Of a stretch of 64,000 nucleotides of DNA, positions 34,667 through 53,200 are shown one piece after another. Both the position numbers and the translations under genes were made by a program. The notes under the pieces were generated by a model that worked only from the letters and a program-made list of their open reading frames with translations, was not told the DNA's origin and did not search any database. The first letter of the stretch is position 1. Every line of letters starts with the position of its first letter. The stretch is from an uncultured Christensenellaceae bacterium (GTDB lineage Bacteria > Bacillota > Clostridia > Christensenellales > UBA3700): contig CALWHF010000002.1 of the NCBI GenBank assembly GCA_944380305.1, positions 105,154 through 169,153 of the forward strand, written 5' to 3'.

Positions 34667-34684
34667 TAAGTGAGGGGGTTAAAC

Positions 34685-35532: not shown

Positions 35533-35757
35533 ATGGCAGGAAGTTTTATTCGCCGTTGGATGGTCCCTCACAAGAGGGCAAAACGTTACGCCGAAGAGCG
35601 TAAAGCAAAGGTACATCAGCGCGGACCTAAAGAAGGAAAAGAGCTGACGGACTACGAAGCCGGTATCCGTTCGGGATATCTGCAGTGTCAGACCGACCAC
35701 GCCGGCATTTACAAATACAAAAAGGCTAAGGAAGCCGAAAAATCAAATAAGAAATAA
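35533..35757 (+). CDS. Small basic hypothetical protein
   Basis: ATG 35533 follows CAGGAGG. MAGSFIRRWMVPHKRAKRYAEERKAK... Confidence 0.55.
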   Translation: MAGSFIRRWMVPHKRAKRYAEERKAKVHQRGPKEGKELTDYEAGIRSGYLQCQTDHAGIYKYKKAKEAEKSNKK

Positions 35758-35771
35758 CGGAGGAACACACA

Positions 35772-36116
35772 ATGAGCAATATCAAAGTAAAAGTCGAACG
35801 CGCGGCTTATGAAAGGAACGACAAATCCTATTTCGCGTATTTTATCAGAGGCAACATCAGAGGCAGAGACATAAGAGTGCTGATCGTACCGCCCGACAAC
35901 GGCGGATACAGAGTCCTCGACATCGTTTTCGACGAAGACATGGAAGCGGATTTTGTCGTCAGACCTTTTGAAATCAAAGACGAGGCGACAGGCAGGATCA
36001 TACGCGGCAACAGTTACGCCGTACAAAGTACGGACGAAGACGGCAAAGTTTACGAATGCGCCGTAAAGCCTTACCGCAAATCCGACAAAGCTCTGCTCGA
36101 CATGCTGCTCGGGTAA
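35772..36116 (+). CDS. Hypothetical beta-rich protein (ssDNA-binding candidate; speculative)
   Basis: 114 aa with RBS ACGGAGGA. The size and the position ahead of the membrane-protein genes fit a gene-V-like role. No motif proof. Confidence 0.55.
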   Translation: MSNIKVKVERAAYERNDKSYFAYFIRGNIRGRDIRVLIVPPDNGGYRVLDIVFDEDMEADFVVRPFEIKDEATGRIIRGNSYAVQSTDEDGKVYECAVKPYRKSDKALLDMLLG

Positions 36117-36189
36117 ACTGCGCAAAATCTGCATCGGGCGGCTTGCATATTAAAGGTGCTTGCCGCCTTTTTTCAAAGGAGGTATAAAC

Positions 36190-37314
36190 ATGAAAAACGA
36201 ACTTCAGAAACACAAGACGGCAGATACTGTGAAATGGATCGCGGTATTCATTGCCATTATAGTGCTGACGGCGGGAATGCTCGCCGCTCTCACCAACGGG
36301 TTCACCGACTTCAACCAGTACGGCTGGCTTGACGAAAGCGAAGAAAGCAAGCAGGAGCCCACAGACGTTACGGACGACGACGGGGATAAACTCGTCAGCG
36401 GCAAAGTATACGATATGCCGTCCGCGATGATATTCAGAAACGCCACTTCTCTTTCTATGTCCGCAAGCGGCGGCATAACGGTTACGGCAACCGTAAAGCC
36501 TGATTCTGCTGTAAATAAAAACGTAGATTGGACTGTTTCCTGGCAGAATCCCGAAAGCGAATTCGCCACGGGCAAAACCGCAACCGATTACGTTACGGCA
36601 CAGCCTTCTTCGGACGGAAGCACGACCGCAGTAATATCCTGTCTTGCACCTTTCGGAGAGCAGATAAAGGTTTCCGTAATATCCAGAGCTAATCCCGGTG
36701 CATATGCGGTGATGACTGTCGACTACGAAAAGAAAGTCAGCGGAGTTTCAGCTATTGCTACAAACGAAGACTACTCTTTCAGCGGTACTACGCTTAAGCT
36801 TGACGATTCCTCAGGCTGGAGCAACAGCGACAAGAACTATTCCGACTACTGGGATCTTACTTATACCTACTCCGAAGGCACTCTCGATCCTGCAAGCGTT
36901 ACAAAGGTCGAGTACTACGTCAAATCTTCGGACGAACTTTCTCAGGCAGTTAGTTCTGCAAAAACCGAGTACGTCCAAATGACCGACAACAGAAGCGATA
37001 TGCTTGAAAAGGCACTCGGTATTGCGTTGTTCACTGAAAAAGTCGACAAGACTAAAGACCCCGTATATCAGGTTGGCGAAGGCGGCATCAAAATACCTGT
37101 ATGGCCGAAGATTACGACGTTCAACTCCGCTACATGGAACAACGTGGTTAGCGCGCTTAACGGGCTTACGGGATATGCTTTCGATCTGAAAATCGTGACG
37201 ACTAACAGTAAGGGCGAAACCGAGGAAACCGTCTTGCAGATATCCGTAGACAAAAGCACTATCGGAGCGCAGGCAAACAGCATCGAGCTCGACAACGAAA
37301 GTCTGATATTCTGA
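36190..37314 (+). CDS. N-terminally anchored protein with Ig-like (Big_2-like) domain
   Basis: TM WIAVFIAIIVLTAGMLAALT. ITVTATVKPDSAVNKNVDWTVSWQNPES. RBS AAAGGAGG. Confidence 0.65.
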   Translation: MKNELQKHKTADTVKWIAVFIAIIVLTAGMLAALTNGFTDFNQYGWLDESEESKQEPTDVTDDDGDKLVSGKVYDMPSAMIFRNATSLSMSASGGITVTATVKPDSAVNKNVDWTVSWQNPESEFATGKTATDYVTAQPSSDGSTTAVISCLAPFGEQIKVSVISRANPGAYAVMTVDYEKKVSGVSAIATNEDYSFSGTTLKLDDSSGWSNSDKNYSDYWDLTYTYSEGTLDPASVTKVEYYVKSSDELSQAVSSAKTEYVQMTDNRSDMLEKALGIALFTEKVDKTKDPVYQVGEGGIKIPVWPKITTFNSATWNNVVSALNGLTGYAFDLKIVTTNSKGETEETVLQISVDKSTIGAQANSIELDNESLIF

Positions 37315-37324
37315 GAGGCTGCCT

Positions 37325-38230
37325 ATGAACGCAAAGAGAAATATGGCATCGACCGTTGGTAAAGTTATAACCTATATTCTCCTGATACTCGCTATTGCGG
37401 GTATCGTGGGGTTCTTTGCGTTCTTTACTAACGGTTTCACAGAGGAATTCAAATCCTTCTATATAGAGCAGGACGGCAAGCCCGTACTGAATACAAACAC
37501 GTCTACCAACATGGACTTCGGCAAGACTTACAGCTTTAACATAAAGTACGTTTTCGACGGTATGACAGACAGCGAAAGCAAAGGCTACTTTGTAAAAATA
37601 GTGCCCAATACAAACACGGATACAGATTTTTTGTTTACGGCAGGCGGAGAAGAAATCTCATTTTCCTCAATAAAGGAGCTGACATCTGCTTTTACGATCA
37701 ACAGACAGACCGACAGCTTCACCGTAACCATCCCTGACAAATTCTCAATGGCAGACGTTCTCGGAAAGATCTATAAGGACTGCGAAATTATTCTGCCCGA
37801 AGACTTCGACGAATCCGCGTATTGGTACAGGCTGGAGGTATCTTCCTACAACGGAGAAATTACGTACAATATCAGATTCCGACTGGGTGCTGACGTGCAG
37901 AGCGTTGAGCTGGACTATTCGCAGATCATCTTCCCGTCCGGCACGACAGTTGACGCTCCGAACGAAGAAGTCGTTTTAAGCGATGAAGCCGTACAGTTCA
38001 GACAGTATGTTGAAGGCGCTTGCAAAGCGGATTACAACGGAGCCGTTACTCTTCTCTCAAGAGCCGACGCCGAATATGAAAAACTGTCTGAGAAAGAAAA
38101 AGACTTGCTGTATGTGGCGAGCGCGTACAAGGCAAAAGAATACCTTGGAAACTGTCTGAAAAGCGGTCAGATAACCGCAGAAGCGCGTGAACAGGCACTT
38201 GCTTATCTTAGCGAATACAAGGAGGAATGA
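37325..38230 (+). CDS. N-terminally anchored hypothetical protein
   Basis: TM VITYILLILAIAGIVGFFAFF. 301 aa. Confidence 0.6.
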   Translation: MNAKRNMASTVGKVITYILLILAIAGIVGFFAFFTNGFTEEFKSFYIEQDGKPVLNTNTSTNMDFGKTYSFNIKYVFDGMTDSESKGYFVKIVPNTNTDTDFLFTAGGEEISFSSIKELTSAFTINRQTDSFTVTIPDKFSMADVLGKIYKDCEIILPEDFDESAYWYRLEVSSYNGEITYNIRFRLGADVQSVELDYSQIIFPSGTTVDAPNEEVVLSDEAVQFRQYVEGACKADYNGAVTLLSRADAEYEKLSEKEKDLLYVASAYKAKEYLGNCLKSGQITAEAREQALAYLSEYKEE

Positions 38231-38232
38231 CT

Positions 38233-39615
38233 ATGACCGTTATACATAAGAACTGTGCGATAGGCGTTATCTTAACGCTTGTTTGCCTTGTGCTGGCATT
38301 TCTCCTGCTTCCTTGTCCAGTATATGCCGAAAGCGTAAACGGCGGATACAGCAGCGTACTCGATGACCTGAAAAGCGACCCGAACTTTGACGAAAACCTT
38401 TATCCTGTCAACGAAACGGATTACAGTCTTCAAGTTGTACAGATAGCAGAAAGTAAAGACGGAGAACTTCTCGTCTACGTCTATCAGCCGAGTAACGGCA
38501 CAAAGGACTTTACGGCATCGTCCGTCAACATCTCTACCGCGATCAACGACAGCCTGTTCTATAAAAATTACAAGCTGGAACTTCAAAGCAGAGAGGGAGC
38601 GTTCTGCAAATACCTTGTCAAAGAGTTTGAGCTGAAGTCCGACGCAATGAGGTATTACGACATATCCGCGATATTCCGTCCGTATGACGAAACGACGGAT
38701 AAAGGCTTGCCTATCGACAACGAAAACGACTTGAACGAAGTATCCTTCAAAGTCGCAAAGCTGTTTACCGCAGTTACCGTTGACGGCAAAGTGTCTTACT
38801 CGTGCATCGAAACCAAAGTGATAGAGGTCACGGACAAGTACGTCGGTCATCTCAGATACTCCAACGGCTTCTCTCTGTGTCCGTCATCGTGTCTTGCGTA
38901 TTTTGTCGCGTTCGATACAAACTTGCCTATTGACAATCTGTACGAGGCAGACATCTACTTCGTAACGCAGGATTACAGGTATTACCACCGCACTCCGAAT
39001 TGGGCGCAGTTTGATCCCGGAGAGGACACTATGACGTACGAAGATGCGGTCGAGCGCGAATTAACGCTTACTTACGATACAGTTGTCGAACACGAAGGCG
39101 GCGGACTGTTTGCGAAAAAGTACACATGGAAACGCATTGAAAGCGTTGACGAGTTTATCAAAAACGAAAAGCTTACGGACGAAGGACTAAAAGACCTTGA
39201 AAATAAGAGTTGGGTTCTGCGCTTTTACGAAGCCGATTACTCATTTGTACAAGGCTCTAACTCCTTTACGGAACAGTCTACCAAAGTAAACGACGTTACC
39301 ATTCTTCGCCTGAAATTCGAGACGGACGGAGTCGTGTACAACCTCGGAGTCGTAGACAACAAACAGTCTCCGACTCAGGGACAGCAACCTGACAACGAAA
39401 ACACAAACGAGTGGGAGTTTCCGTCTTTCGGCGATAAGGATTGGGAAAAGATTCTCGGAACAATCCTTCTAATGATAGGCATTATCCTGATCGTCATTAT
39501 GCTCGCGCCCCTTCTTCCCGTTCTTATAAGACTCGTTGTATGGCTCATCGCTCTGCCTTTCAGACTTATAGGAGCAATGGTAAAATCGCTGAAAAACATA
39601 AGGAGGAACAAATGA
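38233..39615 (+). CDS. Secreted protein with C-terminal double-TM anchor (adsorption/structural candidate)
   Basis: Signal peptide ...LLLPCPVYAES. C-terminal ILGTILLMIGIILIVIMLAPLLPVLIRLVVWLIALPF. ATG 38233 is better spaced from AAGGAGGA than track ATG 38227. Confidence 0.62.
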   Translation: MTVIHKNCAIGVILTLVCLVLAFLLLPCPVYAESVNGGYSSVLDDLKSDPNFDENLYPVNETDYSLQVVQIAESKDGELLVYVYQPSNGTKDFTASSVNISTAINDSLFYKNYKLELQSREGAFCKYLVKEFELKSDAMRYYDISAIFRPYDETTDKGLPIDNENDLNEVSFKVAKLFTAVTVDGKVSYSCIETKVIEVTDKYVGHLRYSNGFSLCPSSCLAYFVAFDTNLPIDNLYEADIYFVTQDYRYYHRTPNWAQFDPGEDTMTYEDAVERELTLTYDTVVEHEGGGLFAKKYTWKRIESVDEFIKNEKLTDEGLKDLENKSWVLRFYEADYSFVQGSNSFTEQSTKVNDVTILRLKFETDGVVYNLGVVDNKQSPTQGQQPDNENTNEWEFPSFGDKDWEKILGTILLMIGIILIVIMLAPLLPVLIRLVVWLIALPFRLIGAMVKSLKNIRRNK

Positions 39616-39758
39616 AAACGGTAAAAAGAATTGTTGCGATTGTTCTTGTTATCGTTACGGCAGTAGCGGTCGGCTACCTCGTCTTTACGGGTAACCGACT
39701 GACTGTCGGTTCGGAACATACAACCGCTTATCTTTCAGAGAGGTGTTTATATGGATAA
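39612..39758 (+). CDS. Small single-pass membrane protein (48 aa)
   Basis: MKTVKRIVAIVLVIVTAVAVGYLVF... RBS AGGAGGAACAA. ATGA overlap with the upstream stop. Confidence 0.5.
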   Translation: MKTVKRIVAIVLVIVTAVAVGYLVFTGNRLTVGSEHTTAYLSERCLYG

Positions 39759-41859
39759 AAGAAGAATTTTTCATATATGCGCGACCGCAGCGCTGACCTT
39801 GGTTTTTGCGTTTGCAGGCTTGTATTTTTTCAAGTCATCGTATCTGAGACTTGCAGAAAGCTTTTGCGACGCTGCGGATTCGTTCAAGTACTTTTTTCAA
39901 AAGCTGACAAAACAAGACACAACCGCCGAACTGTCCGTCCTGAATTACTCAGAGCATCTGAAATGGAATATTATTCTTCCGTCAGACTTTAAGACGTTCG
40001 GGGAAAGATTTATAGAGTATTTTTCTCTGCTATCCAGCCATTCCAACATAGCTATGTACGGCAAAGAAGTAGCTGTTACAGCAGGCAAAATATCTAAAGT
40101 TACGGCAATCGTAGCACCCTGTCTTATGATCATTGTGCTGATACTCTCGCGTTTGTATATGCGCGGAAACACTAAGCACAACAAAGATACTTTGCCTCTT
40201 AAAGTGTTCAGAACGGTATCGGGATATACATATCAGCCGATCAAACGCACTGTCCTTTTATACAAAAGCTGGCTTGACGACAACAGTGCAATATATGTGC
40301 TTTGGGCTATCATATGGCTTGTAAATCTGAACATCGCTACGGTGTTAACGGAATTCTTTGCATACTACTTTTTCTTTATATCTTCGTTCGATCTTTCGAC
40401 GCTATATCCGCAGGTATGCAAACTGTTTATCGACTTGCAGGTGATATTCGAGGCTTTCCCGTGGTGGTCTCTCGTTCTTATCGCCTACGTCCTGTTTGAC
40501 AGATTCCGTAAAAGGATAGCGGACGATACCCTGCATCATTTCGAAGCGAGAAACTGCGGATTTATCAATACTCTGCCGATAGTCAGCATGACCTGCGGAA
40601 GTATGGGCAAAAAGAAAACGACTATGGTAACGGATATGGCTCTGTCACAAGAGGTGATGTTCCGCCAGAAAGCGCTCGAGATATTGCAAAACAACGATAT
40701 GAAATTTCCTCACTTTCCTTGGCTCGCATTCGAACTCGAACTGAAAAAATGTATGGAACACCATACCGTCTACAATCTGGCAACCGTCGCAAATTTCGTC
40801 CGCAAAAAGCAGGAACGTTACGAAAGGCATACCGATGCCGACCTTCAGCTGTTCGGTTACGATGTCAAAAGATACGGGATATTTTACAGCGACGCGCTCA
40901 AAACACAAACTCTTTTCGAGGTTATCGAAACGTATGCAAAAGCGTATTTCATCTACGTTATCGAAAGCAGCCTGATTGTGTCAAATTATTCTATCCGTGT
41001 AGATAATACGCTGTTTAACGAAGGCAACTTTCCGCTTTGGGATACAGAGTTTTTCGCTTACGGAAGACGTTGTTCGAGACATTCGCACATACTCGATTTC
41101 GATACCCTAAGGCTCGGCAGAAAGGTTATCGAAAACAATCCTTTGGCGGGCAGTTTCGAGTTCGGCGTAGTAGTCATTACAGAGGTTGGCAAAGAACGCG
41201 GAAACAACCTCGAATTAAAAGAGGTCAAAAAAGGCAACGACGAAACCAATCAGAAAAACGACCTCTTCAACTCGTGGCTTAAGATGTGCCGGCACAGTGC
41301 AACCGTGGACAGCTTCCCTTTCATAAAAGTCTTTACGGACGAACAGCGTCCCGAAAGCTGGGGAGCAGACGCAAGGGACCTTTGCGACATAATAACCATA
41401 CAAAGTACGGACGGGAACAAACTCGCCCTGCCTTTCTATACGCTCGAAGATATGGCAAGCGAAATACTGTTCAACAGTTTCCTTTCCTTCTACACAAAAC
41501 TGAGGTTTAAGCGCGGCGACAATACTCTGCTCTGTCATATTCTGAAAAGCGCAACCGCATGGCTGTGGCGCAGGAACATACGCATTTACAACCGCTACGG
41601 TTACAGCGTCCTGAAAGTAGCAAAAGAGCGCGGAACAATGGACGGCAAGCAAGAACGTCAGCGTTATTACCTTATGAATAAGAAGATATACAGCAGACGT
41701 TTTTCAACCGACTGTTTCTCCGACTACTTCAACGATATGGCAAAGAATTGCGACATAGGCTTGAGAGATTACCTCGAATACGTCAGCGAAAAAGCGACCG
41801 TTGATGAACTCAGAATGCAGAACAGCTACTTTGTCAGAAGTCTTTACAAAGACAGCTAA
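39751..41859 (+). CDS. Polytopic membrane protein with C-terminal P-loop NTPase domain
   Basis: About 5 N-terminal hydrophobic segments. Walker A MTCGSMGKKKTT. Walker-B-like FGVVVITEVGKERG. Confidence 0.68.
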   Translation: MDKRRIFHICATAALTLVFAFAGLYFFKSSYLRLAESFCDAADSFKYFFQKLTKQDTTAELSVLNYSEHLKWNIILPSDFKTFGERFIEYFSLLSSHSNIAMYGKEVAVTAGKISKVTAIVAPCLMIIVLILSRLYMRGNTKHNKDTLPLKVFRTVSGYTYQPIKRTVLLYKSWLDDNSAIYVLWAIIWLVNLNIATVLTEFFAYYFFFISSFDLSTLYPQVCKLFIDLQVIFEAFPWWSLVLIAYVLFDRFRKRIADDTLHHFEARNCGFINTLPIVSMTCGSMGKKKTTMVTDMALSQEVMFRQKALEILQNNDMKFPHFPWLAFELELKKCMEHHTVYNLATVANFVRKKQERYERHTDADLQLFGYDVKRYGIFYSDALKTQTLFEVIETYAKAYFIYVIESSLIVSNYSIRVDNTLFNEGNFPLWDTEFFAYGRRCSRHSHILDFDTLRLGRKVIENNPLAGSFEFGVVVITEVGKERGNNLELKEVKKGNDETNQKNDLFNSWLKMCRHSATVDSFPFIKVFTDEQRPESWGADARDLCDIITIQSTDGNKLALPFYTLEDMASEILFNSFLSFYTKLRFKRGDNTLLCHILKSATAWLWRRNIRIYNRYGYSVLKVAKERGTMDGKQERQRYYLMNKKIYSRRFSTDCFSDYFNDMAKNCDIGLRDYLEYVSEKATVDELRMQNSYFVRSLYKDS

Positions 41860-41874
41860 TACGGAGGTGATAAT

Positions 41875-42921
41875 ATGCCTTATCCTGAAACCAAAGTCTA
41901 CTTTGACGGCAGTCATTATATTGCCATACCGCACACGACAAGACCAGGTCTGAAACGTTCGTATCAGCCGGAAGAAGAAATAGAATTATCGGAAGAGCCG
42001 TCTTCTTCTCTCTCCGATGCCGAGCCGATCGAGTGCGACGTTCTGCCGTTTGAAGATAACAGCGCCGACGTCAGCAATATCGGTATCGAAAATAGCACTG
42101 AAAACCATTGCGGAGTTACTGAAACATCGAATCAAACCAATAAAAAGAGAACGACAAGAAAAGAATTGTTTGAAAACTTGTATGACGAAACCAGAAACTT
42201 AAAGCGTGCCGAACGAAAGAAATTCATACTAAAAAATATGGCACAGTATTTTAAGAATATGAAATCCGCAAAGGAGTACGTCGACCGTCAGTTCGAAAGA
42301 AAACTCAGAAACCTTATCTGCAGAAGAATAAGGCTGACGCGCAAAGTAAACCTGCAGGAGTTCAACTATTTCTGCACTTTTACCTACGACGGATCCAAGC
42401 ATACCGAAGCAGAGTTCAAAAGCAAACTGCGAAGCTGTTTTAAGATGATGTGCCATCGTAAAAAATGGAAATACGTCGGAGTCTGGGAGAGATCTCCCGA
42501 AAAGCAAAGGCTGCATTTTCACGGTTTATTCTATATCCCTGACGGGTCGATGCCTGGTGAACTGATGAAGGTGAACGACTACTCTCCCGTAAAAAAGAAG
42601 GTGCAGTATACTTTGCAGAACACCTACTTTAACGAACGCTTCGGCAGATCTGATTTCAAGCCCGTCTGCGACCGCTCGGAGTTAGGCAATGCCATAGCCT
42701 ACCTGACTAAATACATGGAAAAAACGGGCGAAAAGGTCGTCTACTCAAAAGGTCTTCCGCAGTTTTTCATAACTGACATAGAAGACGACGATGTAGTCTG
42801 CACAATCGGCGCAGACGATTCGAAACTACTGCTCTTTGACAACTTCATATGCTGGGACGAAGGCGAATATATCGGTCCCGTAAGCAAAGACACGATAAGC
42901 AAACTGAGAAAAAGCAACTAA
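41875..42921 (+). CDS. rep: HUH-superfamily rolling-circle replication initiator
   Basis: LHFHGLFYIP (HUH) and AIAYLTKYMEKTGE (YxxK catalytic-Tyr motif). RBS GGAGGTG. Confidence 0.7.
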   Translation: MPYPETKVYFDGSHYIAIPHTTRPGLKRSYQPEEEIELSEEPSSSLSDAEPIECDVLPFEDNSADVSNIGIENSTENHCGVTETSNQTNKKRTTRKELFENLYDETRNLKRAERKKFILKNMAQYFKNMKSAKEYVDRQFERKLRNLICRRIRLTRKVNLQEFNYFCTFTYDGSKHTEAEFKSKLRSCFKMMCHRKKWKYVGVWERSPEKQRLHFHGLFYIPDGSMPGELMKVNDYSPVKKKVQYTLQNTYFNERFGRSDFKPVCDRSELGNAIAYLTKYMEKTGEKVVYSKGLPQFFITDIEDDDVVCTIGADDSKLLLFDNFICWDEGEYIGPVSKDTISKLRKSN

Positions 42922-43054: not shown

Positions 43055-43116
43055 GGCGTGTGCTTGTCGCGACGGCGCGCAGCGCCGGCGCTCTCGTATC
43101 AAGACAAGCACACGCC
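43055..43116. repeat. Perfect 14-bp inverted repeat with GC-rich loop at the Rep-module / AT-rich-island junction
   Basis: GGCGTGTGCTTGTC (43055-43068) and GACAAGCACACGCC (43103-43116). The 34-nt spacer is itself GC-rich and partly palindromic. Confidence 0.75.
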
Positions 43117-43157: not shown

Positions 43158-44618
43158 TTAATATTTTTTTGCTATCAGTGAAATAAATTTCTCTGCATCT
43201 TCTTTATTGTATTCTTGAGATATTATATCAAATACTCTTTCAAGTATTGTCTTTTGCTGTATGGTCAATTTATCATTGATGTTTAACGCACTATATTTTG
43301 TTAAAGTTTTTTGCATATGTAACAATTTTGCAATTGTTCCAAAAAAACTTTCATCTGCAACTGATGACGACTCATCTATATCCATAAGAACCGATTCACT
43401 CATTTCTTCCATCATTTCCAGTGTTTCTGTATTTAGTCCATTTATATCTTCATTATCTAAAATGCTAAGTTTATCCTTTGATAAGCTTCTTTCAGAAGAT
43501 TTTTTACGGATATCTTTAGTTATATTGCTTGCCCATTCCTCTATTAAATCTACAAAGCTATAATACGCATTATTTTTTTCAAAGTCATCTCTTCTAGAAT
43601 TAATTATTAGTTCAGGATCAATTATATAAATTTCACCAATAAGCCACCCGTTAAATCGTTCTTCTTTAAAAAAATGATTACAGGTCGATTTCCCACCGAC
43701 TAAAATATTGCCTTGACGAATTCGAATGCCTTTTATTTGATTATCCATAATGGTGCCCATATAATTTGTATTTGCATACCATAAAATAGCAGCCATTTTT
43801 TCGTCTTTACATAATGGAACAATTTCTACATCTTGTATTGTATCAAATATCTTTTTCACTCTATCAGCTACAAATGTGTTTTGATATGGTTTATATAGAT
43901 CTTGTTTTTCCCCATCCACATTTAAAATAACTCTATAGCAATCTATGTGGTATCCTATATTCTTAATTTTCTCATTGATTAATGAGCCCCAATTAAAATC
44001 ATTATTGAAAGGCAACGGACAATGTTGAACCAAATAATCTTTTACTTGTTCGCAATCTATAAGCTTATCTGCCATATCAACACCCTCAAGTATTACTTCG
44101 AAATAATGACTTGAAATTTTCTCAGGTGAAAATTCAATCGTAACGATTTCGTTGATTACAGATTTAATGCTCATTTCAGTTTCGTTACCCATAAGCAATA
44201 ATCGTTTTAGCTTTTTTGCATCAAATTTGATTTTTACTTTATTATTTTCATTTAATGCAGATGTAATAAAGGTTAAAGTATCACAATAACCCAAACCTGA
44301 CAATCTGCCAATTCCTCTAAACCCACGAGAAACTTGCCTGTGCTTTTGAGAGTTCCCAATATCCAATAAAGTTCTTACAGCTTTTTCGCTCCTAATTCCA
44401 ATGCCGTTATCTTTGATTGATATAGCTTTTTTATTTGTGTCAAGACAAACCTCAATCTTTAAATCATTTTGACCGCATAAACCTTCTTTAATTGTTTCAT
44501 CGAAAGAATCAACTGCATTTTGTATATACTCTCTATATAAGTCAAAAGGAGAAGCATACATTCCATTAGTCAAAGACTCCAACGTATACTTTCCAACCAT
44601 AAAATCCAATTCCATCAT
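43158..44618 (-). CDS. GHKL (Hsp90/MORC-like) ATPase, paralog 2
   Basis: YIQNAVDSFDE (N box), IKDNGIGI (G1) and GFRGIGRLSGLGY (G2). Clear paralog of 56955-58475, sharing VGKYTLESLT.GMY...YREYIQN.VD. Has a 4-nt ATGA overlap with the radical SAM gene. Confidence 0.8.
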   Translation of the reverse strand: MMELDFMVGKYTLESLTNGMYASPFDLYREYIQNAVDSFDETIKEGLCGQNDLKIEVCLDTNKKAISIKDNGIGIRSEKAVRTLLDIGNSQKHRQVSRGFRGIGRLSGLGYCDTLTFITSALNENNKVKIKFDAKKLKRLLLMGNETEMSIKSVINEIVTIEFSPEKISSHYFEVILEGVDMADKLIDCEQVKDYLVQHCPLPFNNDFNWGSLINEKIKNIGYHIDCYRVILNVDGEKQDLYKPYQNTFVADRVKKIFDTIQDVEIVPLCKDEKMAAILWYANTNYMGTIMDNQIKGIRIRQGNILVGGKSTCNHFFKEERFNGWLIGEIYIIDPELIINSRRDDFEKNNAYYSFVDLIEEWASNITKDIRKKSSERSLSKDKLSILDNEDINGLNTETLEMMEEMSESVLMDIDESSSVADESFFGTIAKLLHMQKTLTKYSALNINDKLTIQQKTILERVFDIISQEYNKEDAEKFISLIAKKY

Positions 44619-46648
44619 TCATCCTCATCAAAAAGTGTAATCTGATTGTACATTTGAGTTAGTGAGAGCTTTATTTGTTCAATCAAATACTCAACGCCAA
44701 CATTTTCATCTTTAGCTTGCTTTATCAGTGATGTTTTGAATTCTTCCATTTTGTCCAATAGTAATTCTTTTGCATTGGAAGAATCCAACTTTTTGATTGA
44801 ATCTATTAAAATCTTTTTCTCTTTCGATTTTAAAATACCTGCATTTATAAACAAATACGCACTTTTGACTATATCGTAATTAAACGTTTTAATATGGGTT
44901 TTAGCCTGTATTTTTGCCAAACTTCCTATAATAAATGGCGGTTCTGAGCCTTCAAAAGATAACTCGGCAAAAATATCATTTACCAATTTTTTTCTAAATA
45001 TTTTATACGCTCCTTCAATATAAGATAGTGGAATCCTTCCTGATGCTATATATCTAACCATTCTTATATAGATTAAAGGAAATTCATTACATATATAATT
45101 TACAATAAACGTAGCTTCATTTCCTTCCAACGTATTTAAAGATTTAAGCAACATTGGCAATGTAAAATAATGAATGAACAACTTTTTATGCAAATCATCT
45201 TTTAACGTAATATATTTTTCTATAGTATAGTTATTATCTCCAATTTCACGAATAAACGCTTCCTTATTATCTCCCAATTGATTAAACAATCTCGTCCATT
45301 CTGCTATATATTTTTGATTTTCGTTCCAAATTTTTAGTCTGCTTTCCAACTCAATTGGAGTTTCATTCTTATGTTCTACAAAATATCCTCTCCAACCAAG
45401 ATGTTCTTCTGGCATAGCTAAAAATTCAAGAAATTGTCTCACATCTTTTCCAAAATCTGCCTCAAAAAAAGAACGTGACGATACTCCTTTCCCTTGTGTC
45501 GGTATCATCATTCTTTGTAACGCTCTAAGATATTTCATATTCCATTTTTTACCAACATATCCTCTTTTTAAATCGGAAAGCGGTATATATCTCATTGGAA
45601 ATGAAAACAAAGTTATTTTATATCCTAATTCAGCACTTAATTCCTCACATAAATCTAACGATATTTTCATCCTGCAATACAAATCCTCAGGTGTATCGGC
45701 ATGATAATTATGACCTTTTCCTTTAAAATCATCTCCATTATAAAGCATATAATTTGACATGTGCGTAATACCATTTTCCGCACATAATCTTATCGCTTTT
45801 TTATATGCCTCAGCATCTTCAATATGGTCAAAAGCAATTCTAGCTGGACGAATTGCAAGTTCACCTAATCTTTTTGCTTTATGAGGAGTTAGAAGAAAAG
45901 CATCTAATCCTTGATTAAAATCAACATATCTTTTAACCTTTTTACCTGTTTTAGGATTTGTGTATGTAGCACCTTTGGCAAATCCCAACTCTTTAATCTC
46001 GTCAACAATTTTGTCAAAATCTGGCGATCTAAGAACATTATTATCCATTAAAAGCAAATCTTTTTTGGGACCAAATTTTTTTTCTATAAATCTTATGCTA
46101 TCTTTAATTGACAAATATGGAATATATTCTGGCTCAAGTGTTTGCACTGCACAAAATTGACACTTCATTCCACACCCTCTGGTCATATATGTGAAATAAG
46201 CATCGTGTGCAGGATAAACGTATTGATCCGAAATATCGTCTAATATACTATAATCCAAAGGCATAGTATCTACACATTCTTCACCTTTTAACCCCAATGT
46301 CCCCGTGTGATTTAAAAGTCCAGTATTATTTTTTACCGTAGGAAAATTTTCTGCAATAAGTTCTGGCATAAGAGTCGCCAAAATTCCTCCGGTATAAACT
46401 TGTGTCGGATCCTTAACTATGGATAAAGCATATTCAAGTGCCTTTTTTGTGTTTTCCCATTCAAAAGTAAAAAGCGTTGTTACATATACCCTATCCCATT
46501 TCTTGTCTTTGAATGCATCAGGTAACTTCCCTTTAGCAAATCTAACATAATCCCCGATAATATATTTATGAAAATACGATATTTTCATAAGACCCATTGG
46601 AGGATATTTATTTGAATATCCTGGTTCCAATAAAAGTATATCTGCCAT
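44615..46648 (-). CDS. Radical SAM enzyme with N-terminal B12-binding-like (Rossmann) domain
   Basis: YMTRGCGMKCQFCAV carries the CxxxCxxC motif. The N-terminal ILLLEPGYSNKYPPMGLMKISYF...VYVTTLFTF...TGGILATLMPE resembles the cobalamin-binding-type domain of class B radical SAM proteins. 677 aa. Confidence 0.82.
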   Translation of the reverse strand: MADILLLEPGYSNKYPPMGLMKISYFHKYIIGDYVRFAKGKLPDAFKDKKWDRVYVTTLFTFEWENTKKALEYALSIVKDPTQVYTGGILATLMPELIAENFPTVKNNTGLLNHTGTLGLKGEECVDTMPLDYSILDDISDQYVYPAHDAYFTYMTRGCGMKCQFCAVQTLEPEYIPYLSIKDSIRFIEKKFGPKKDLLLMDNNVLRSPDFDKIVDEIKELGFAKGATYTNPKTGKKVKRYVDFNQGLDAFLLTPHKAKRLGELAIRPARIAFDHIEDAEAYKKAIRLCAENGITHMSNYMLYNGDDFKGKGHNYHADTPEDLYCRMKISLDLCEELSAELGYKITLFSFPMRYIPLSDLKRGYVGKKWNMKYLRALQRMMIPTQGKGVSSRSFFEADFGKDVRQFLEFLAMPEEHLGWRGYFVEHKNETPIELESRLKIWNENQKYIAEWTRLFNQLGDNKEAFIREIGDNNYTIEKYITLKDDLHKKLFIHYFTLPMLLKSLNTLEGNEATFIVNYICNEFPLIYIRMVRYIASGRIPLSYIEGAYKIFRKKLVNDIFAELSFEGSEPPFIIGSLAKIQAKTHIKTFNYDIVKSAYLFINAGILKSKEKKILIDSIKKLDSSNAKELLLDKMEEFKTSLIKQAKDENVGVEYLIEQIKLSLTQMYNQITLFDEDE

Positions 46649-46677: not shown

Positions 46678-48327
46678 TTACTTAATAGTACTCAATATAT
46701 ACAAATAATATCTAGCTCTTGTTATTGCAATGTACTCTCTACTTCTTATTAAAACATCTTTTGGAAGTTTTTCGTATTCATTTTTTATATATATAATAAT
46801 ATCAGCTTCTAAACCTTTAAATTCTTCTACAGTTTTAAAGCAAATCTCATTATCATTAATTTCAGATAATTGTTTAAACGATATGTCATATCCTCCAATT
46901 CTAGTATCATCTGCCAACACAGAATCCTTAAAAGATTCATTCGAAAGAATGACAATAGATTTTGTTTGAACATACTCTTTCTTCGTAAGCCTATTTACTA
47001 TATTCGTTAATGATTTTAATGTTTGTTTACCACTCCTATACGTCATTATTTCTGGCTGAACTCCTAACAATGTATTTGCTATAGTATCTGAGCCAAGATT
47101 AGTTCTGTCCACTGCGCACTTGTAAATACATCCAGTATTTCTAATGTTATATCTTAGTATAAATGGCGGGTACTCAATTGCAAAAGCATTTTCAAAATGT
47201 TTTGAAAAAATATTTTGATTCTCGTCATAAAATACATATAAATTCGATTTTTTTTCATCTTTTAAAAGTGCTCTTACAGATAATCCCATATCTATATCAA
47301 AATCTTGCGCTTCATCGACAATTATCGAATCGTAACGCGTTTTAATTTTATCGTTATTAAGATAATCAAAACAACAGCGACTTCCGTTTTCATTAGTTGG
47401 GATTTTATAATAATCCTCTCCTAGAATTTCAAGCATTACTTCCTCGTATGTACAGCATTTAAACAATTCATCACTATCAACCTTCGAATTTACAAAATTA
47501 GCCAATTCTTTATTACAGCATAGAAACAAAACCTTTCGATTTAATATAATATCTCTTTTGGCTTTTTTTATTGCAATGTATGTTTTACCCGTTCCTGCTC
47601 CTCCGATAATTTTTACTTGTGGATAGTGAAATAAAATATCCAAAACACTATCTTGAACAAAATCTATTTTCGCAAATTCTTTTTCTTTTATTGGTATCAA
47701 TGCACCCGCAGCCGCTGATAAAGATATTCTCTTATTTACGACATTAATAAAACGATTTCTTTGGTCAATAGAAAATGGCGTATTGATATTTCGATTATTT
47801 TTCCAATAATGAAATATTTCATTAATTTTTTTTGCAAGACTTTTCATGTCTTTTATATCTATGGTAAGATCATCAGGAGCATCTTGAGCTAAAGAATTAT
47901 CTATAGCATAATTTGGAAAAGCAACAGCATATCCATATACACCTTTAAAATTCAAATTAAACTCTTCCGAAAAATAATCGTAGAAATGCCTCATACTTTT
48001 TTCAGCTTGATAATAAGGACTGCATTTTAATTCTCTTCTAGTGTTTGTATCTCCGTCGTATGTTTCGTTAAGATACCATATACCATTATCGATTTCAATG
48101 CCTGTTCCACCTTTTACTTCAATTGTTAAAAAACCGAATTGCGGATCAAAAACAAGAAAATCACATTCGCTATCTACTCGTTTATTTTCACTGTCTTTTT
48201 CAAACCATCTAATTGAATAAAACACCTGCATTCTATCCGGAAGCTGATCTTGAAATGCATAATATATGTGTTTTTCGCTTAAAGTGCAATCGTAATTTGC
48301 CAAGTCAGACGGATGCATTATTGCCAT
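46678..48327 (-). CDS. NERD-type PD-(D/E)xK nuclease fused to SF1 (UvrD-like) helicase (Nhi-like architecture)
   Basis: ECDFLVFDPQFGFLTIEVKGG (NERD), IIGGAGTGKTYIA (Walker A), IIVDEAQDF and AITRARYYLYIL. ATG 48327 follows GGGAGG and lies 2 nt after the upstream stop. Confidence 0.83.
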   Translation of the reverse strand: MAIMHPSDLANYDCTLSEKHIYYAFQDQLPDRMQVFYSIRWFEKDSENKRVDSECDFLVFDPQFGFLTIEVKGGTGIEIDNGIWYLNETYDGDTNTRRELKCSPYYQAEKSMRHFYDYFSEEFNLNFKGVYGYAVAFPNYAIDNSLAQDAPDDLTIDIKDMKSLAKKINEIFHYWKNNRNINTPFSIDQRNRFINVVNKRISLSAAAGALIPIKEKEFAKIDFVQDSVLDILFHYPQVKIIGGAGTGKTYIAIKKAKRDIILNRKVLFLCCNKELANFVNSKVDSDELFKCCTYEEVMLEILGEDYYKIPTNENGSRCCFDYLNNDKIKTRYDSIIVDEAQDFDIDMGLSVRALLKDEKKSNLYVFYDENQNIFSKHFENAFAIEYPPFILRYNIRNTGCIYKCAVDRTNLGSDTIANTLLGVQPEIMTYRSGKQTLKSLTNIVNRLTKKEYVQTKSIVILSNESFKDSVLADDTRIGGYDISFKQLSEINDNEICFKTVEEFKGLEADIIIYIKNEYEKLPKDVLIRSREYIAITRARYYLYILSTIK

Positions 48328-48329
48328 TA

Positions 48330-50210
48330 TTATTCCTCCCAAAAACCTATCGTTTTCTTTTTTGTTTCCTTATCTACATGCCCGATAATATAAGAACGGT
48401 CAAGATCTTTATTAAAATGCACACATGAAACTTCATTTAAAAATAAACACCCCGTACAGGCTTTATATCTTTCTATGCAAATCGGATCAAAAACACATTT
48501 TTGTGCCAATGCAGCTGCTCTAAAAATCCATTTGTCAAAATATGCTTCAAATAAATTTCGAAGAGAACCCAAGCTAAAACCTTGAGAATTCTGACAATAA
48601 ATCAAAATAGCTGGCACGCCTGCAAATATATACTCAGACAATGAATCTTTCCCTAATCCCCCAATTTCAGCTGCTGCTTTAATTAATAAATGAGATATAG
48701 AATGAATCAACCTGTATACATGAAATGTTTCCGGTGTCTCTGTTTCTTCTATTGATGTAAATTTACGAACGCTATCGGGTTTTATATTGTTAATGAACCA
48801 TAATTTTAATTCATATTCCGACTCCAAATTTGGAGCAAATTCTTTTTCAACAAAATTGTTCTTTAACAACCATTCCATAATCATTCTTCTATCTAACTCC
48901 AACAAAATGCCTTCTGTGTTCGTTTTTATAGCATAAATATTCTTTTTGCCTCTTACCTCTTCTTTTAAGGCATGCAATTGCACTCCGGATTCATATTCAC
49001 TTTTTACGCGTGTAAAGCCATAAGAACAGGCAATAAAAGGGATTTTATCGCAAACTTGAGCCGATTTTATACCAAATTTATGCGCAATATCCCAAAAGCA
49101 TTCTGGATTAGCATTTGTATTTAACAATTTTGCTACTTTTATTGCATCATCTAATGTGGATACATCATGGAGATCTTTGACCATATTGTATTCTAAAATA
49201 GATTCTGACACTTTTGCTACATTTGCCATAGTATTAATTAATTGAACTTTAATTTCGTCAACTATTTTATTGTAAGAGTTTCCACACTTTTTTTCAGCAA
49301 TTATTAATGCAGCTATTTTAGCCTGCGTTTCGTCTTTTAACGCAGTTAATAACATTTTATAATGTTCATCAAATATTTTTTGAAACTCGTCATCATCCGT
49401 AGTTATACCTTCTTTAATTATTTTATTCAATTCTTCTTTTGTAATTTTCTCTAACCAATGCGCAAGAACAATAAATTTCCCATAATCTTTTACATTTATA
49501 AAATCTTCAAGCTTTTCGTCAATTAGATCAATCAAACTTAAACTATATGTAAAAAATTGTGAAGGATCTAGCGCATGTTTTGGTCCTAGTTTTCTTCCAC
49601 AAATAGGGCAAGTAACAGTCATATTTATTTTCCTATTACACCCCTGAGCAGTACATATAAAGTTATATTTTCCATCCCATTTTATATACTTACTACCGTG
49701 AGTAGGACACTCAACAGGATGCTTATCTGTAGCATAACCGCATTGGCAAAAATATATTTGTCTAAACTGTGTGAGTTCCACTCCACACGAATAACATTTA
49801 TGATGTCTTTTATAGTCTTCGGCACTTTTAAACTGATAAACTTTTTTACATTTAGGGCAATAAAAAGTTAAAGGGCTTATGCTTGCCACAATTCCTCTTT
49901 CCTCATCTGATGCCTTTGGAGTTAATACATCACAATTATTTTCGTTTAACTCTGTTCCAAAACCAATCGTTGGCGGAAGCAAGGGATTTCCGTATAAACC
50001 TTGTTTATTAAACGATTCTACTTCTTGATTAACCGTCCTGATTAATCTTTTACTATTAATTCCAACTAATTTTTCACTGTTCCATCTTTCAACTTTCGCA
50101 ATATATTGCTTACGTTCTTTTCCTCGTACTGAAAAATCTATCCATGATTCTGGTAAATATTTGTATAACGATTGGGTTTTTCCTCGTTTCATTTGTCTAT
50201 CTGTACTCAT
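48330..50210 (-). CDS. drmB: DUF1998-domain protein, DrmB-like
   Basis: Central Cys-rich zinc-ribbon cluster (CPKCKK...CYSCG...CPTHG...CPICG). C-terminal HSISHLLIKAAA...CVFDPICIERYKACTGCLFLNEVSCVHFNKDLDRS is the DUF1998-type motif. Lies 15 nt downstream of the helicase gene. Confidence 0.7.
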   Translation of the reverse strand: MSTDRQMKRGKTQSLYKYLPESWIDFSVRGKERKQYIAKVERWNSEKLVGINSKRLIRTVNQEVESFNKQGLYGNPLLPPTIGFGTELNENNCDVLTPKASDEERGIVASISPLTFYCPKCKKVYQFKSAEDYKRHHKCYSCGVELTQFRQIYFCQCGYATDKHPVECPTHGSKYIKWDGKYNFICTAQGCNRKINMTVTCPICGRKLGPKHALDPSQFFTYSLSLIDLIDEKLEDFINVKDYGKFIVLAHWLEKITKEELNKIIKEGITTDDDEFQKIFDEHYKMLLTALKDETQAKIAALIIAEKKCGNSYNKIVDEIKVQLINTMANVAKVSESILEYNMVKDLHDVSTLDDAIKVAKLLNTNANPECFWDIAHKFGIKSAQVCDKIPFIACSYGFTRVKSEYESGVQLHALKEEVRGKKNIYAIKTNTEGILLELDRRMIMEWLLKNNFVEKEFAPNLESEYELKLWFINNIKPDSVRKFTSIEETETPETFHVYRLIHSISHLLIKAAAEIGGLGKDSLSEYIFAGVPAILIYCQNSQGFSLGSLRNLFEAYFDKWIFRAAALAQKCVFDPICIERYKACTGCLFLNEVSCVHFNKDLDRSYIIGHVDKETKKKTIGFWEE

Positions 50211-50225
50211 AGTCGGCTCTCCATT

Positions 50226-53200
50226 TTATCCTAATTCTATTATCAATTGCTGATCGGTATCTCTTAAATTGTTCATTATTCTATACCCTAAAATATTAAA
50301 ACCTTCAAAGATGTTTTCGTTTAACCAGTTTCTATCAATAATCGAATCAAAAAAATTGTTAACGAAATCATCTATGCTTTCCTTATATTGATTTCCAACA
50401 TCAACAATTACCTCACCCGACATACATCCATACGCTGAATATAATTCATTTTTAACATTTTCTTTATTGATATTTCCTTCTTTAATAGCCTTTTTAATGT
50501 TTTTCATGTAAAACAGATTGCCAAAAACATATTGCAATTCTGGATCATATTTGTTTAAAAGTAAACCTGAAAAAATACCTGGCAACGTTTCATTAATTGC
50601 TTTTGTCGCCCATCTGTTTATAGGAACTGGTTCTACCATAATATCCTTGAACTCATGAAATTTTATAAAATTCCTCAAGTAACTCTGATCAGTTTCTCTT
50701 GTAGGTCTAATTATATCAATCACAATACTTGAATATTTTCGTCCTGTTCTTGAATATGCTTGAATATATTCTGCAGTATTCCCAGGTATTCCATAGAAAA
50801 ACATAATGTTAAACCTGTCTGCGTCCACACCATGAGAGATCATTGATGTCGCAGCAATAAGATTAACTCCTTTAAAAACATCTTTAGCGTTTTCAACTTG
50901 AGCAAGTACTTCTCTTACATCTTGAAATGTCTCATCTCCTGTCATTTTGCGAGTTATAAATGGAACGATGCCTTCCTTTTGAAGCTCAAAATTAATAGGC
51001 GTTTCCAATGCACCTTCCACATTATTGCTATCTCTTTTTACATTGTTATACTCAAGGAAAATCCAATAATCTTCCAATATTTTTTGTACATCTTGTATTG
51101 AATCTATCCCTATATTCGGAATATCCAATACAAGCTGTGGATTAGCCAAATATCTGTATACGACTTGCCTCATATATTTTAATGAATAAACCACGGAATT
51201 TATAATTGCTTTTCCGTAAGGCGCATATCCAAGAATTAATCGTTGATTGTCATTTTCATCAATGAATGAATAAAAATTCTTGTTTAAATATGGCGATTCA
51301 CAGGGAAACCTTAAAGGATCTTTTCCGTATAATTGAGTTATTTGCGCATCGTATGAAGATATCGTTGCCGTTGCTCCAATTATTTTTATTTTTCTTTTTG
51401 ATTTGGAAACATTTTGCACAAAATAATCAATAAATGATTCATAATGAGAAGCATATGTTCCCAATGATTCTCTAATCAGATGCAATTCGTCTTGAATAAA
51501 TAATGTTGGAGCGGGATCATACATATCAACTTCTTGATAATTCTGAACTTCTACATCACAAAATTCTTTACTTACTATACAACGACAAGATGAAGTGTAT
51601 CCGTGTTTAGGGCATCGCATAGTAGCTCCTGAGAGTATGTTCCGAAAATTCGGATTGTTTCCTAAAATTGCTAATTTATCTACCGTACTTATAATTGCTG
51701 AAGGCAAATACCTATATATCTCACTATCAACCATATAAATAGGCAGTATTTTACCTGAAGTGCATTCAGGATTGTCACAATAATGGATTAATCTGTAAGT
51801 ATTTTCATCAAAATCCAAATGAACCGTCTGTTTTCCACAAAACGGACATATATCAATGATCCGTTCTTCATCCTTCTCGTCCTGAGACATATTCCTATAG
51901 CTTTTTACTCTAGCCTCACCTATTTTATTTGGAGTATTGTTATCTCCGACAAAATACCCTAACGAAAACTCTTCTGTATCCTTAATCTCACTTATTGAAC
52001 GTCTTAATAATTCTGCTTGTGCTAAAGTATTTGCTAAACGTTGCACTTGCTGCACTGAAAGAAGACGTAGAGGATATCTTAAAATAGAAGTTACTCCACT
52101 ACTTTTACCTCTAAAGCGGTCAAAAAACAAATTAAATACTAATACTCCTAAAAATGCTTCTGTTTTTCCTCCTCCTGTTGGAAAATACAGTAAAGATACC
52201 CATCCCAAAGTTGTTCTTTCTTTCTCTTCATTAGTCATTAAATTTGGATCACAAGCAACTATGTCTGGTATAAGTGAAACGATGTAAACTATTTGAAATA
52301 GTCTCCATGTATCATATTTTTTCGCAGTGTTTAAAAAAGCTTTATTCATATAAATAAAACTTTTTATAACCATTGGATAATCTTTTATTACCTCTATACC
52401 AAATTTAAATCTATTAATTTCTTGTTCAAATTCTTTTATTTCACTTGAAAACTTTTCACGCCCTGCCTCTGTCAATGAATTCTTCTTTCCCTCGAAATCG
52501 GATTTCCATTGTTTTAGTTCAGAAATCATTTTATTTTTAATTTCTTGTAAAATATCAATAGGTTTGTCTATCAAATCTTGAAATTTGACTGCTAATTTAT
52601 CATTTGTCAATAATCTCTTTTGAATATACGTAGGTAAATGCTCAGTCATTATAGCATTTCTATCTTTATCAAAAGTTATTGAACAATTTGCTCCTATCGC
52701 TTTCTGTTCTTTATTGTATTTGTAATCATCCCTAAAATAATCCAAAACTATAGGGGCGTAATTTGCACCACTTAAAATTACTTCTAACCCGGAATTGAAT
52801 AATGTTTCAATAGAAGTTTTATCTTTATCCTTATTATTAGATTGGTGTGTTTGTAAATTAGATTGTACAGCTGACGTATTAACTAAATTTACACTTATTA
52901 AATATCTGTTTTTAATCTTTTTAACCTTAACGTCAATATATACACTCCAATTTTGGTTAATAATAGGCTCTTTTTTTGCTTTCGTATTTAAAAATTTTGC
53001 ATATGTTTCATCGGATAACAGATCTTCAATAGATGTTTGTTCATACACAACATATTTATATCTAAGCGCGTCTGCATCTAGCCCATCTTTTATCGTTTCC
53101 AAATAACTTTGCAATTGCTGATTATGATAATGATTTTCATCCATTATTCCATAATTCAATAGTTCATCATAAATTTCTAACAATAAAAAGTCAATATTAA

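Follow-up and report, generated by a model that had tools for sequence, protein, structure and literature searches.

Gene content of the operon

The 64,000-nucleotide (nt) stretch of DNA analyzed here, referred to below as the window, comes from an uncultured Christensenellaceae bacterium (GenBank assembly GCA_944380305.1, contig CALWHF010000002.1, positions 105,154 to 169,153). It carries a gene for a radical S-adenosylmethionine (rSAM) enzyme coupled to a gene for a GHKL ATPase, at the end of an operon that also encodes DrmA and DrmB, two proteins of the DISARM defense system. The operon occupies a low-GC block that runs from ~59.2 kb down to 43.1 kb of the window (~31% G+C, against ~50% in the first 26 kb) and holds nine genes, all on the minus strand, with junctions of −13 to 115 nt. 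The rSAM gene (44615 to 46648), an open reading frame (ORF) of 677 amino acids (aa) with an ATG start and a Pfam Radical_SAM match, is the constant component of the family described below. Between it and the preceding gene, which encodes a NERD-superfamily 1 (SF1) helicase, lies a gap of 29 nt that includes an AGGAG ribosome-binding site. Its stop codon shares an ATGA overlap with the start of the gene for GHKL-2 (43158 to 44618), a 486-aa Hsp90-like ATPase (HATPase_c_3 at 2e-10), and the sequence of this junction is gaggatgaATGAtggaa. A first-pass annotation of the DNA had proposed a 677-aa rSAM enzyme with a CxxxCxxC motif, the ATGA coupling and the 29-nt gap, all of which were borne out by the ORFs, the junctions and Pfam.

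Upstream of this pair, the operon encodes a paralog of GHKL-2 named GHKL-1 (56955 to 58535; Pfam HATPase_c_3 at 5.8e-14), followed by a 654-aa UvrD-like SF1 helicase (54985 to 56949; Pfam UvrD-helicase and UvrD_C at ~7e-10, PADLOC NERD+UvrD at 3e-26) and a 430-aa protein (53688 to 54980) with a weak bactofilin-like repeat (Pfam Bactofilin at 2.8e-4, under the cutoff). Next come the superfamily 2 (SF2) helicase DrmA (50226 to 53666; PADLOC DrmA at 1.5e-169, Pfam DEAD and Helicase_C), the DUF1998-type protein DrmB (48330 to 50210; PADLOC DrmB at 5e-62), and the protein that joins a NERD nuclease domain to an SF1 helicase (46678 to 48342; Pfam NERD and AAA_19/UvrD, PADLOC RTasNERD-Hel at 5e-69), whose ORF as listed has a TTG start and a 13-nt overlap with drmB. 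The 430-aa protein holds the same position across the DrmAB-type loci, and a PDB sequence search returned nothing usable for it. Whether the first ORF of the low-GC block (58651 to 59160; 169 aa) belongs to the operon is uncertain. This ORF has no match in Pfam, PADLOC, NCBIfam or a PDB sequence search, and a homolog (2e-09) lies near the rSAM-GHKL pair of a related locus (L027, 5519 to 5998, minus strand). Near-consensus promoter-like sites are found 5′ of the 169-aa ORF (59199 to 59227) and of GHKL-1 (58636 to 58664); the total of such sites across the island shows no excess over chance.

Architecture of the rSAM enzyme and of its GHKL partner

The rSAM assignment is based on a Pfam match to Radical_SAM (PF04055) over residues 154 to 306, at 32.9 bits against a gathering score of 29.5, and on the motif RGCGMKCQFC, which, read from the translation, places C159, C163 and C166 in a CxxxCxxC [4Fe-4S]/SAM motif (46151 to 46174) conserved in two alignments. 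Across 27 diverse aligned homologs, C163 and C166 never vary, and at least 90% have C159. The family core conserved over these homologs spans residues 1 to ~430 and comprises three parts. A Rossmann-like (B12-binding-like) domain (residues 1 to 140; 46229 to 46648), recognized in the structural model and by PF02310 matches in homologs, bears the invariant motifs EPxY..KYPPxGLMK and TTLFTF/GGI. The radical SAM barrel core (residues 150 to 360; 45569 to 46201), delimited by three alignments and by structural matches, contains the invariant motifs LLMDNN, VDFNQGxD, RPxRIAFD, SNYxLYN, DxPxDLYxR and SFPMRY. Finally, a family-specific extension (residues 361 to 430; 45359 to 45568) with invariant W369, G386, G400, P413 and R420 is found in all length classes of the family. 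The remaining residues, 431 to 677 (44618 to 45358), form a variable, poorly conserved domain, missing from the ~460-aa forms and doubled in the ~810-aa forms. The first-pass annotation had given this C-terminal region ~300 aa; its extent is corrected here to ~250 aa, modeled with high confidence as all-alpha.

An AlphaFold (AF2) model of the protein, built with 36 sequences, reached a mean predicted local distance difference test (pLDDT) score of 84 and a predicted template modeling (pTM) score of 0.75. It shows an N-terminal domain of alternating strands and helices (residues 1 to 110), the rSAM barrel and an all-helical C-terminal domain whose helices have high pLDDT. The best Foldseek matches of this model in the PDB were TsrM (8e-7), MgmA/QCMT (1.4e-6) and then, as the third-ranked distinct protein, AprD4 (1.8e-5), with Foldseek probabilities of 0.98 to 1.00 to TsrM, MgmA, AprD4, LAM, MoaA and LIAS. 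A 2026 review defines class I B12-rSAM enzymes by such a two-domain layout, Rossmann plus radical SAM; AprD4 and ArsL-like enzymes have the same architecture with no cobalamin bound, and class B also has nonmethylating members such as OxsB and BchE (PMC12931638). The B12-binding family PF02310 gave weak Pfam matches in 14 of the 27 homologs (best E value, 1.4e-4) and did not match the window's own enzyme. Structure prediction therefore supports a class-B-like, or "B12-domain-type," fold, in which cobalamin use and methyl transfer are putative. Of the class B-type enzyme proposed in the first-pass annotation, the Rossmann domain stands, and the best structural matches, TsrM and MgmA, are cobalamin-dependent methylases; because the B12-free AprD4 matches nearly as well as these two, the use of B12 is putative. 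Searches of PADLOC, NCBIfam and PDB sequences, family profiles included, gave no assignment for the protein, and a fold search of BFVD returned only generic phage rSAM proteins. In public annotation, family members are merely a "radical SAM protein" or a "hypothetical protein."

The coupled GHKL-2 retains all the residues of the Bergerat ATP site, which are invariant (E30, N34, D70, G74 and GxxGxG at 99 to 104), and is 40% identical to GHKL-1 over 380 aa (BLASTP, 4e-103). Neither PADLOC nor NCBIfam gave it a significant family assignment. Its AF2 model (pLDDT 79) can be laid over Hsp90/TRAP1/HtpG across their N-terminal and middle domains (Foldseek 9e-16, template modeling score of ~0.5, ~480 columns), so that in its predicted fold the protein is Hsp90-like. 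A MORC/MutL-type identity was considered and dropped, since Foldseek favors Hsp90/TRAP1/HtpG. In 72 of the 122 assessable loci, the gene that directly follows the rSAM gene encodes a GHKL protein, and the median length of the rSAM protein is 547 aa with such a gene versus 466 aa without it (Mann-Whitney, p = 2.5e-16). Because rSAM length tracks the presence of a downstream GHKL gene, residues 431 to 677 are predicted to serve the GHKL partner as a docking site or adaptor.

Partner cassettes of the rSAM family

The context of the family was surveyed by clustering the ORFs of 164 loci from genome and metagenome collections, 160 of which are nonredundant, with partner identities drawn from Pfam, PADLOC, weak PDB profile matches and independent RefSeq annotation. 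The rSAM gene, mostly the last or next-to-last, stands beside at least one recurrent partner in 143 of the 160 loci; most of the remaining 17 are short contigs. This context is restriction-like and not consistently biosynthetic. GHKL genes are present in 82 loci. The most common cassette (54 loci) consists of a ParB-like protein, a small PD-ExK-motif protein, an SNF2 helicase and another ParB-like protein. A DGQHR protein (DndB/DpdB-like) directly upstream of the rSAM gene was found in 43 loci; 33 have a protein with RNA polymerase alpha C-terminal domain repeats, PbeA, PbeC and a 147-aa protein; and 25 have the UvrD-p430-DrmA-DrmB-NERD helicase series of the window, p430 being the 430-aa protein. 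DGQHR-rSAM(-GHKL) loci without a helicase cassette number 26 and resemble modification-only dnd/dpd loci. The same trio is annotated independently by RefSeq on plasmids pNL1 and pR132505 as "DGQHR protein - radical SAM protein - ATP-binding protein."

Within the DrmAB type, the order UvrD-p430-DrmA-DrmB-NERD helicase-rSAM-GHKL is maintained from 99% down to ~42% rSAM identity, with short or overlapping junctions, and spans Lachnospiraceae, Oscillospiraceae, Peptococcaceae and other families. The NERD-SF1 helicase is syntenic in every DrmAB-type locus except an archaeal one, L045. Conversely, two loci (L007 and L008) have rSAM-GHKL pairs 61 to 65% identical to the window's that are joined to the SNF2 cassette and not to DrmAB, and a neighbor-joining ordering of the conserved core shows the DrmAB context arising at least three times. 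The rSAM-GHKL module moves among three restriction architectures.

Several related arrangements deserve mention on their own account. In the SNF2-type cassette (e.g., L073, 6063 to 9987), two paralogous ParB-N-like proteins, which have ENPR and GNxR motifs and weak Noc/ParB matches in the PDB, flank an SNF2 helicase resembling DpdE/ZorD and a protein of ~140 aa that bears a nuclease-like PD...E-A-K motif; the cassette is not reported as a system by any PADLOC model. Profile searches gave nothing usable for the small proteins of clusters c4 and c14 in related loci. In a fourth arrangement, two proteins of ~360 to 400 and ~550 to 580 aa, both without a Pfam or PADLOC match, are followed in order by a GHKL gene, the rSAM gene and at times a second GHKL gene, with no helicase cassette recognized (L023, L052 and L060, and the IMG/VR loci L178, L179, L181, L183 to L185, L191, L192 and L220). 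On pNL1 (L244, 4078 to 7631) and pR132505 (L245, 12203 to 15719), which are unrelated alphaproteobacterial conjugative plasmids, a "PIN-like domain protein" and an "ATP-binding protein" lie beside the DGQHR-rSAM-GHKL trio, and this pair may be the counterpart of the window's GHKL-1 and UvrD-like helicase. Additionally, pNL1 encodes a 769-aa DGQHR protein, whose homolog in another locus (L083) is a DGQHR-HEPN_Swt1 fusion.

The place of the missing methyltransferase

The claim of the first-pass annotation that the island has no conventional methyltransferase held. No DNA methyltransferase was recognized by Pfam or PADLOC among the genes of the operon and the flanking island, and when all ORFs of 80 aa or more in the 64-kb window were scanned for methyltransferase motifs, none turned up. 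Such enzymes are also scarce in the related loci. Among the downstream neighbors of ~19 DrmAB-type loci, N6_Mtase matched 1 of 70, and the generic Methyltransf_25 gave two matches. Motif-level candidates within 10 kb were seen in 10 of 159 loci, most of them at distances above 5 kb; in the DrmAB-type loci, the scan yielded exactly one N6/N4 candidate, in agreement with the single N6_Mtase match in Pfam.

The archaeal locus L045, from a Thermoplasmata metagenome-assembled genome, has the order DrmA (2e-104)-DrmB (6e-26)-DrmC (PLD, ~1e-14)-DrmE (DrmE_C, 1e-14)-rSAM-DpnI-like endonuclease, with no methyltransferase within 10 kb downstream. Judged from these matches, it is a class-2-like DISARM with the rSAM gene in the usual place of drmMII. 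The gene directly past the rSAM gene (11600 to 12364 of L045) encodes a DpnI-like methyl-directed endonuclease (Pfam DpnI at 1e-57, PADLOC mREase_II at 3e-80), which fits a host that avoids adenine methylation.

Other partners point to the same position. DndB/DpdB family members are DNA-binding ParB-fold proteins that accompany the DNA-modifying enzymes of Dnd and Dpd systems. PbeA/PbeC (CxC-ABC ATPase) systems usually come with a modification part, either phosphorothioation genes or C5/N4 methylases (PMC10853773). In the 33 loci with PbeA and PbeC, the rSAM gene is found in the neighborhood where modification genes normally sit. The putative DNA-modification role of the rSAM enzyme draws support from the partner systems (DISARM, Dnd/Pbe and Dpd), which normally carry a modifying enzyme. 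Likewise, comparison among loci, through the gene arrangement of L045 and the scarcity of methyltransferases, supports the earlier suggestion that the enzyme occupies the position expected of a DISARM methyltransferase.

Family size and distribution

The rSAM family is large and widely distributed. Two word-indexed searches each returned more than 7,000 homologous proteins, and an exhaustive search of representatives, clustered at 50% identity, gave 1,236 clusters, with 220 under 1e-30; metagenomic members run to thousands. Among 185,579 species genomes, carriers number at least 569, spread over many bacterial phyla and a few archaea, and include aerobes such as Pseudomonadales, Variovorax and Methylobacter. 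Conjugative plasmids, among them those of Novosphingobium, Rhizobium and Mesorhizobium, also have it, and close relatives of the window's operon lie, in identical gene order, on integrative and conjugative elements of gut Firmicutes. That so large a family is missing from PADLOC 2.0 and NCBIfam reveals a blind spot in the annotation of defense systems. In the open-access literature, we found no account of the family, nor of any DISARM, Dnd or Dpd variant with an rSAM enzyme, and one may exist in subscription journals; the nearest topics (DndC, which is not an rSAM protein, EVE-linked rSAMs, vWA-MoxR, ProPhylo and Ophion) are unrelated to it.

A distant clade of ~300-aa rSAM proteins (22 to 31% identity) occurs in bona fide phage genomes (IMG/VR loci L193 to L243), among them LoVEphage-like Bacteroides/Phocaeicola phages, Clostridium phage phiCT453B and Marinitoga camini virus 1. 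The phage records with this clade are PQ571302.1 (L247, 4974 to 5891), MW660583.1, NC_029004.1 and KP836355.1 (L246). In PV4-TP1, the gene of this clade lies amid genes for PAPS reductase, DNA adenine methylase fragments, ASCH and RtcB.

A possible self-marking module and its rivals

The reading that we prefer, which we hold at a little under an even chance, is that the coupled pair of rSAM enzyme and Hsp90-like GHKL protein constitutes a portable two-gene module for the self-marking of DNA in helicase-nuclease restriction systems. Self-marking had been proposed in the first-pass annotation; the restriction-like context agrees with it, while we infer DNA as the substrate, modification as the role of the enzyme and the part played by the ATPase. 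Under this hypothesis, a GHKL dimer docked on the helical C-terminal domain of the rSAM enzyme would spend ATP on clamping or presenting DNA. The enzyme would cleave SAM reductively at the [4Fe-4S] cluster, possibly with cobalamin in the Rossmann domain, and would mark resident DNA covalently; the most plausible product would be an unactivated carbon of base or sugar that carries a C-methyl group or another alkyl group. DrmAB and the NERD- and UvrD-type helicase-nucleases would then engage unmarked incoming DNA, with the NERD-SF1 helicase probably standing in for the missing PLD nuclease DrmC.

More speculative, and in our judgment somewhat doubtful, is the broader proposal that the whole rSAM family writes a new radical-chemistry DNA mark, possibly a cobalamin-dependent C-alkylation of base or sugar, interchangeably among at least three unrelated restriction architectures (DISARM-like DrmAB, SNF2/ParB-like and Pbe/CxC-ABC). 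DNA is known to be marked as self or nonself by SAM-dependent methylation, by phosphorothioation (Dnd/Ssp) and by the insertion of 7-deazaguanine (Dpd). If the proposal is correct, this would be a third self-marking chemistry that does not use a methyltransferase, alongside the latter two. It would account for how DrmAB clusters without a methylase escape autoimmunity, and it would extend class-B-like rSAM enzymology to a possible nucleic-acid substrate and bring an Hsp90-like ATPase into a defense system.

Several points weigh against self-marking. The rSAM enzyme has no recognizable DNA-binding domain, and DNA is not the substrate of its closest structural relatives: TsrM acts on tryptophan, QCMT/MgmA on a protein and AprD4 on an aminoglycoside. 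The cobalamin binding invoked above is putative, as an architecture like that of AprD4 can be B12-free. Furthermore, rSAM enzymes are slow and oxygen sensitive, properties ill suited to marking a whole genome, although aerobes are among the carriers of the family. The exact DrmABCE-plus-rSAM arrangement was seen in a single locus, L045, and the methyltransferase survey of the related loci covered ~10 kb on each side and was partly motif based. The PIN-like and HEPN domains of the proteobacterial variants fit an abortive-infection logic, in which the enzyme could act as an effector or as the maker of a signal.

An effector role, which we regard as unlikely but as the strongest of the rivals, would have the 5′-deoxyadenosyl radical damage or block the nucleic acid or nucleotides of the invader after sensing by the helicases and GHKL proteins, for example, by strand scission through hydrogen abstraction from the sugar or by production of a viperin-like chain terminator. 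Swapping among sensor and helicase cassettes is frequent for effector modules, the abortive-infection logic suggested by the PIN-like and HEPN partners is of the same kind, and prokaryotic viperins (pVips) are proven rSAM antiviral effectors. The Ophion rSAM system has also been proven to be antiviral (bioRxiv 10.1101/2025.09.30.679545). However, the rSAM enzyme is not needed as an effector because each partner cassette already has its own nuclease domain (NERD, PD-ExK, HKD or PLD). The enzyme is also found at the positions of modification genes, both in L045 and in the Pbe- and DGQHR-type loci, and solitary DGQHR-rSAM-GHKL trios exist. As for a viperin-like product, which the first-pass annotation had offered as an alternative, the PADLOC pVip models gave zero matches to the window's enzyme at an E value of ≤0.01 and to five relatives at ≤1, viperin is not among the top 50 structural matches of the model in the PDB, and the partners are helicases and nucleases. 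The alternative thus finds no support, and a viperin-like identity was rejected on PADLOC and fold evidence.

A role as a protein maturase or regulator, as in QCMT and Mmp10, is less probable still. Here the enzyme would modify a helicase or a client of the Hsp90-like ATPase and thereby license the system. The protein glutamine C-methylase MgmA/QCMT is the second-best structural match, the coupled partner has a fold best known for holding protein clients, and the C-terminal extension covaries with GHKL. On the other hand, three unrelated cassettes are involved and GHKL is not directly downstream in 50 of the 122 assessable loci, so that no single protein substrate is conserved; besides GHKL, the commonest immediate neighbor is the DNA-binding ParB-fold DGQHR protein. 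It is very improbable that the rSAM-GHKL pair is a separate two-gene unit, functionally uncoupled and a mere neighbor of DISARM-like genes in defense islands, for although islands gather defense genes, BREX BrxC/D genes and other systems adjoin several related loci, and the pair is found without a recognized cassette (seven GHKL-only loci), the gene order is stable across several families at the divergence noted above and the partner cassette is on the rSAM strand in 89% of loci.

Surroundings of the operon

The defense block belongs to a larger integrated region that adjoins a tRNA-Arg gene (26801 to 26875) and contains a tyrosine integrase, an AbiEii/AbiEi pair, a third GHKL gene, a Rep ORF2/G2P gene and a PcfJ-like gene. 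Near the tRNA gene, the GC content falls from ~50% to ~30%. Immediately past it lies the third GHKL gene (HATPase_c_3, 659 aa, 27003 to 28982, minus strand), followed by the AbiEii/AbiEi (DUF6088) pair and the integrase, with further coordinates of 29137 to 30655 and 31550 to 32965, both on the minus strand. This part of the window looks like the attachment end of an integrated element or a separate defense islet. Between the integrase and the defense operon, a plus-strand block (34241 to 42921; GC, 42 to 48%) includes ORFs of 384, 301, 462 and 702 aa without a Pfam match and is closed by the Rep ORF2/G2P replication protein (41875 to 42921, plus strand); the block may be a small integrated rolling-circle or single-stranded DNA element. 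A megablast search of the 17-kb island against plasmids gave no match.

Just 3′ of GHKL-2, in the AT-rich spacer that separates it from the Rep gene, lies a GC-rich hairpin with a 14-bp stem (43055 to 43116, minus strand; −45.4 kcal/mol, z = −4.3) and no T-run. It likely marks the end of the operon or the island junction, and its candidate roles are those of a terminator, of a junction or recombination site, and of a replication origin for the adjoining Rep element.

Comparison with known systems

With pVips and with OpnA of Ophion, the window's system shares a radical SAM enzyme in an antiphage context, but the rSAM clade and architecture differ. The rSAM protein of Ophion is paired with PHP and PRTase proteins (bioRxiv 10.1101/2025.09.30.679545), whereas the partners in the window are helicase-nuclease modules. 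The likeness to class I cobalamin-dependent rSAM enzymes (TsrM, QCMT/MgmA, TokK and OxsB) and to AprD4 lies in the Rossmann domain followed by a CxxxCxxC TIM-barrel domain. Identity to these enzymes is merely 11 to 15% (Foldseek, 8e-7 to 1.8e-5), and the VDFNQGxD, RPxRIAFD and SNYxLYN motifs, the 70-aa extension and the variable helical C-terminal domain are the family's own. GHKL-2 resembles Hsp90/HtpG and MORC/paraMORC in its Bergerat motifs and, for Hsp90/TRAP1/HtpG, in the superposition of the N-terminal and middle domains. Compared with Hsp90, it is far shorter and has its own helical C terminus, and the presence of two GHKL paralogs in one operon sets it apart from Hsp90/HtpG and MORC alike.

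Related loci, in turn, resemble Dnd, Pbe and Dpd systems in the upstream DGQHR protein, the flanking PbeA and PbeC and the DpdE-like SNF2 helicases, while the window itself has none of the proteins of these systems. The pairing of an enzyme with a DNA-handling ATPase is reminiscent of DndC with DndD and of DpdA with DpdB. The sulfur-transfer enzymes DndA/DndC and the transglycosylase DpdA were not seen among the annotated neighbors, for which Pfam scans covered mainly the DrmAB-type loci, and the rSAM enzyme is found in their place.

DISARM (classes 1 and 2) combines DrmA, DrmB and DrmC with either DrmD/DrmMI or DrmE/DrmMII, and the window shares with it the DrmA and DrmB pair and a multigene helicase operon on a mobile element. 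Unlike DISARM, it has no PLD nuclease DrmC (no PLD domain occurs in the nine operon proteins), no DrmD (SNF2), no DrmE by Pfam or PADLOC, and no dedicated methyltransferase, either the N6-adenine enzyme DrmMI or the C5 enzyme DrmMII; DrmC and DrmE were seen only in L045. Because the features of DrmC, the methyltransferase and DrmD/E fail, the cluster is not filed as DISARM class 1 or 2. In their stead, it has its own NERD-SF1 helicase, UvrD-like helicase, 430-aa protein, two GHKL proteins and rSAM enzyme. What the self-marking hypothesis adds to these systems is the rSAM-GHKL module as a predicted writer within modification-restriction of the DISARM, Dnd and Dpd type.

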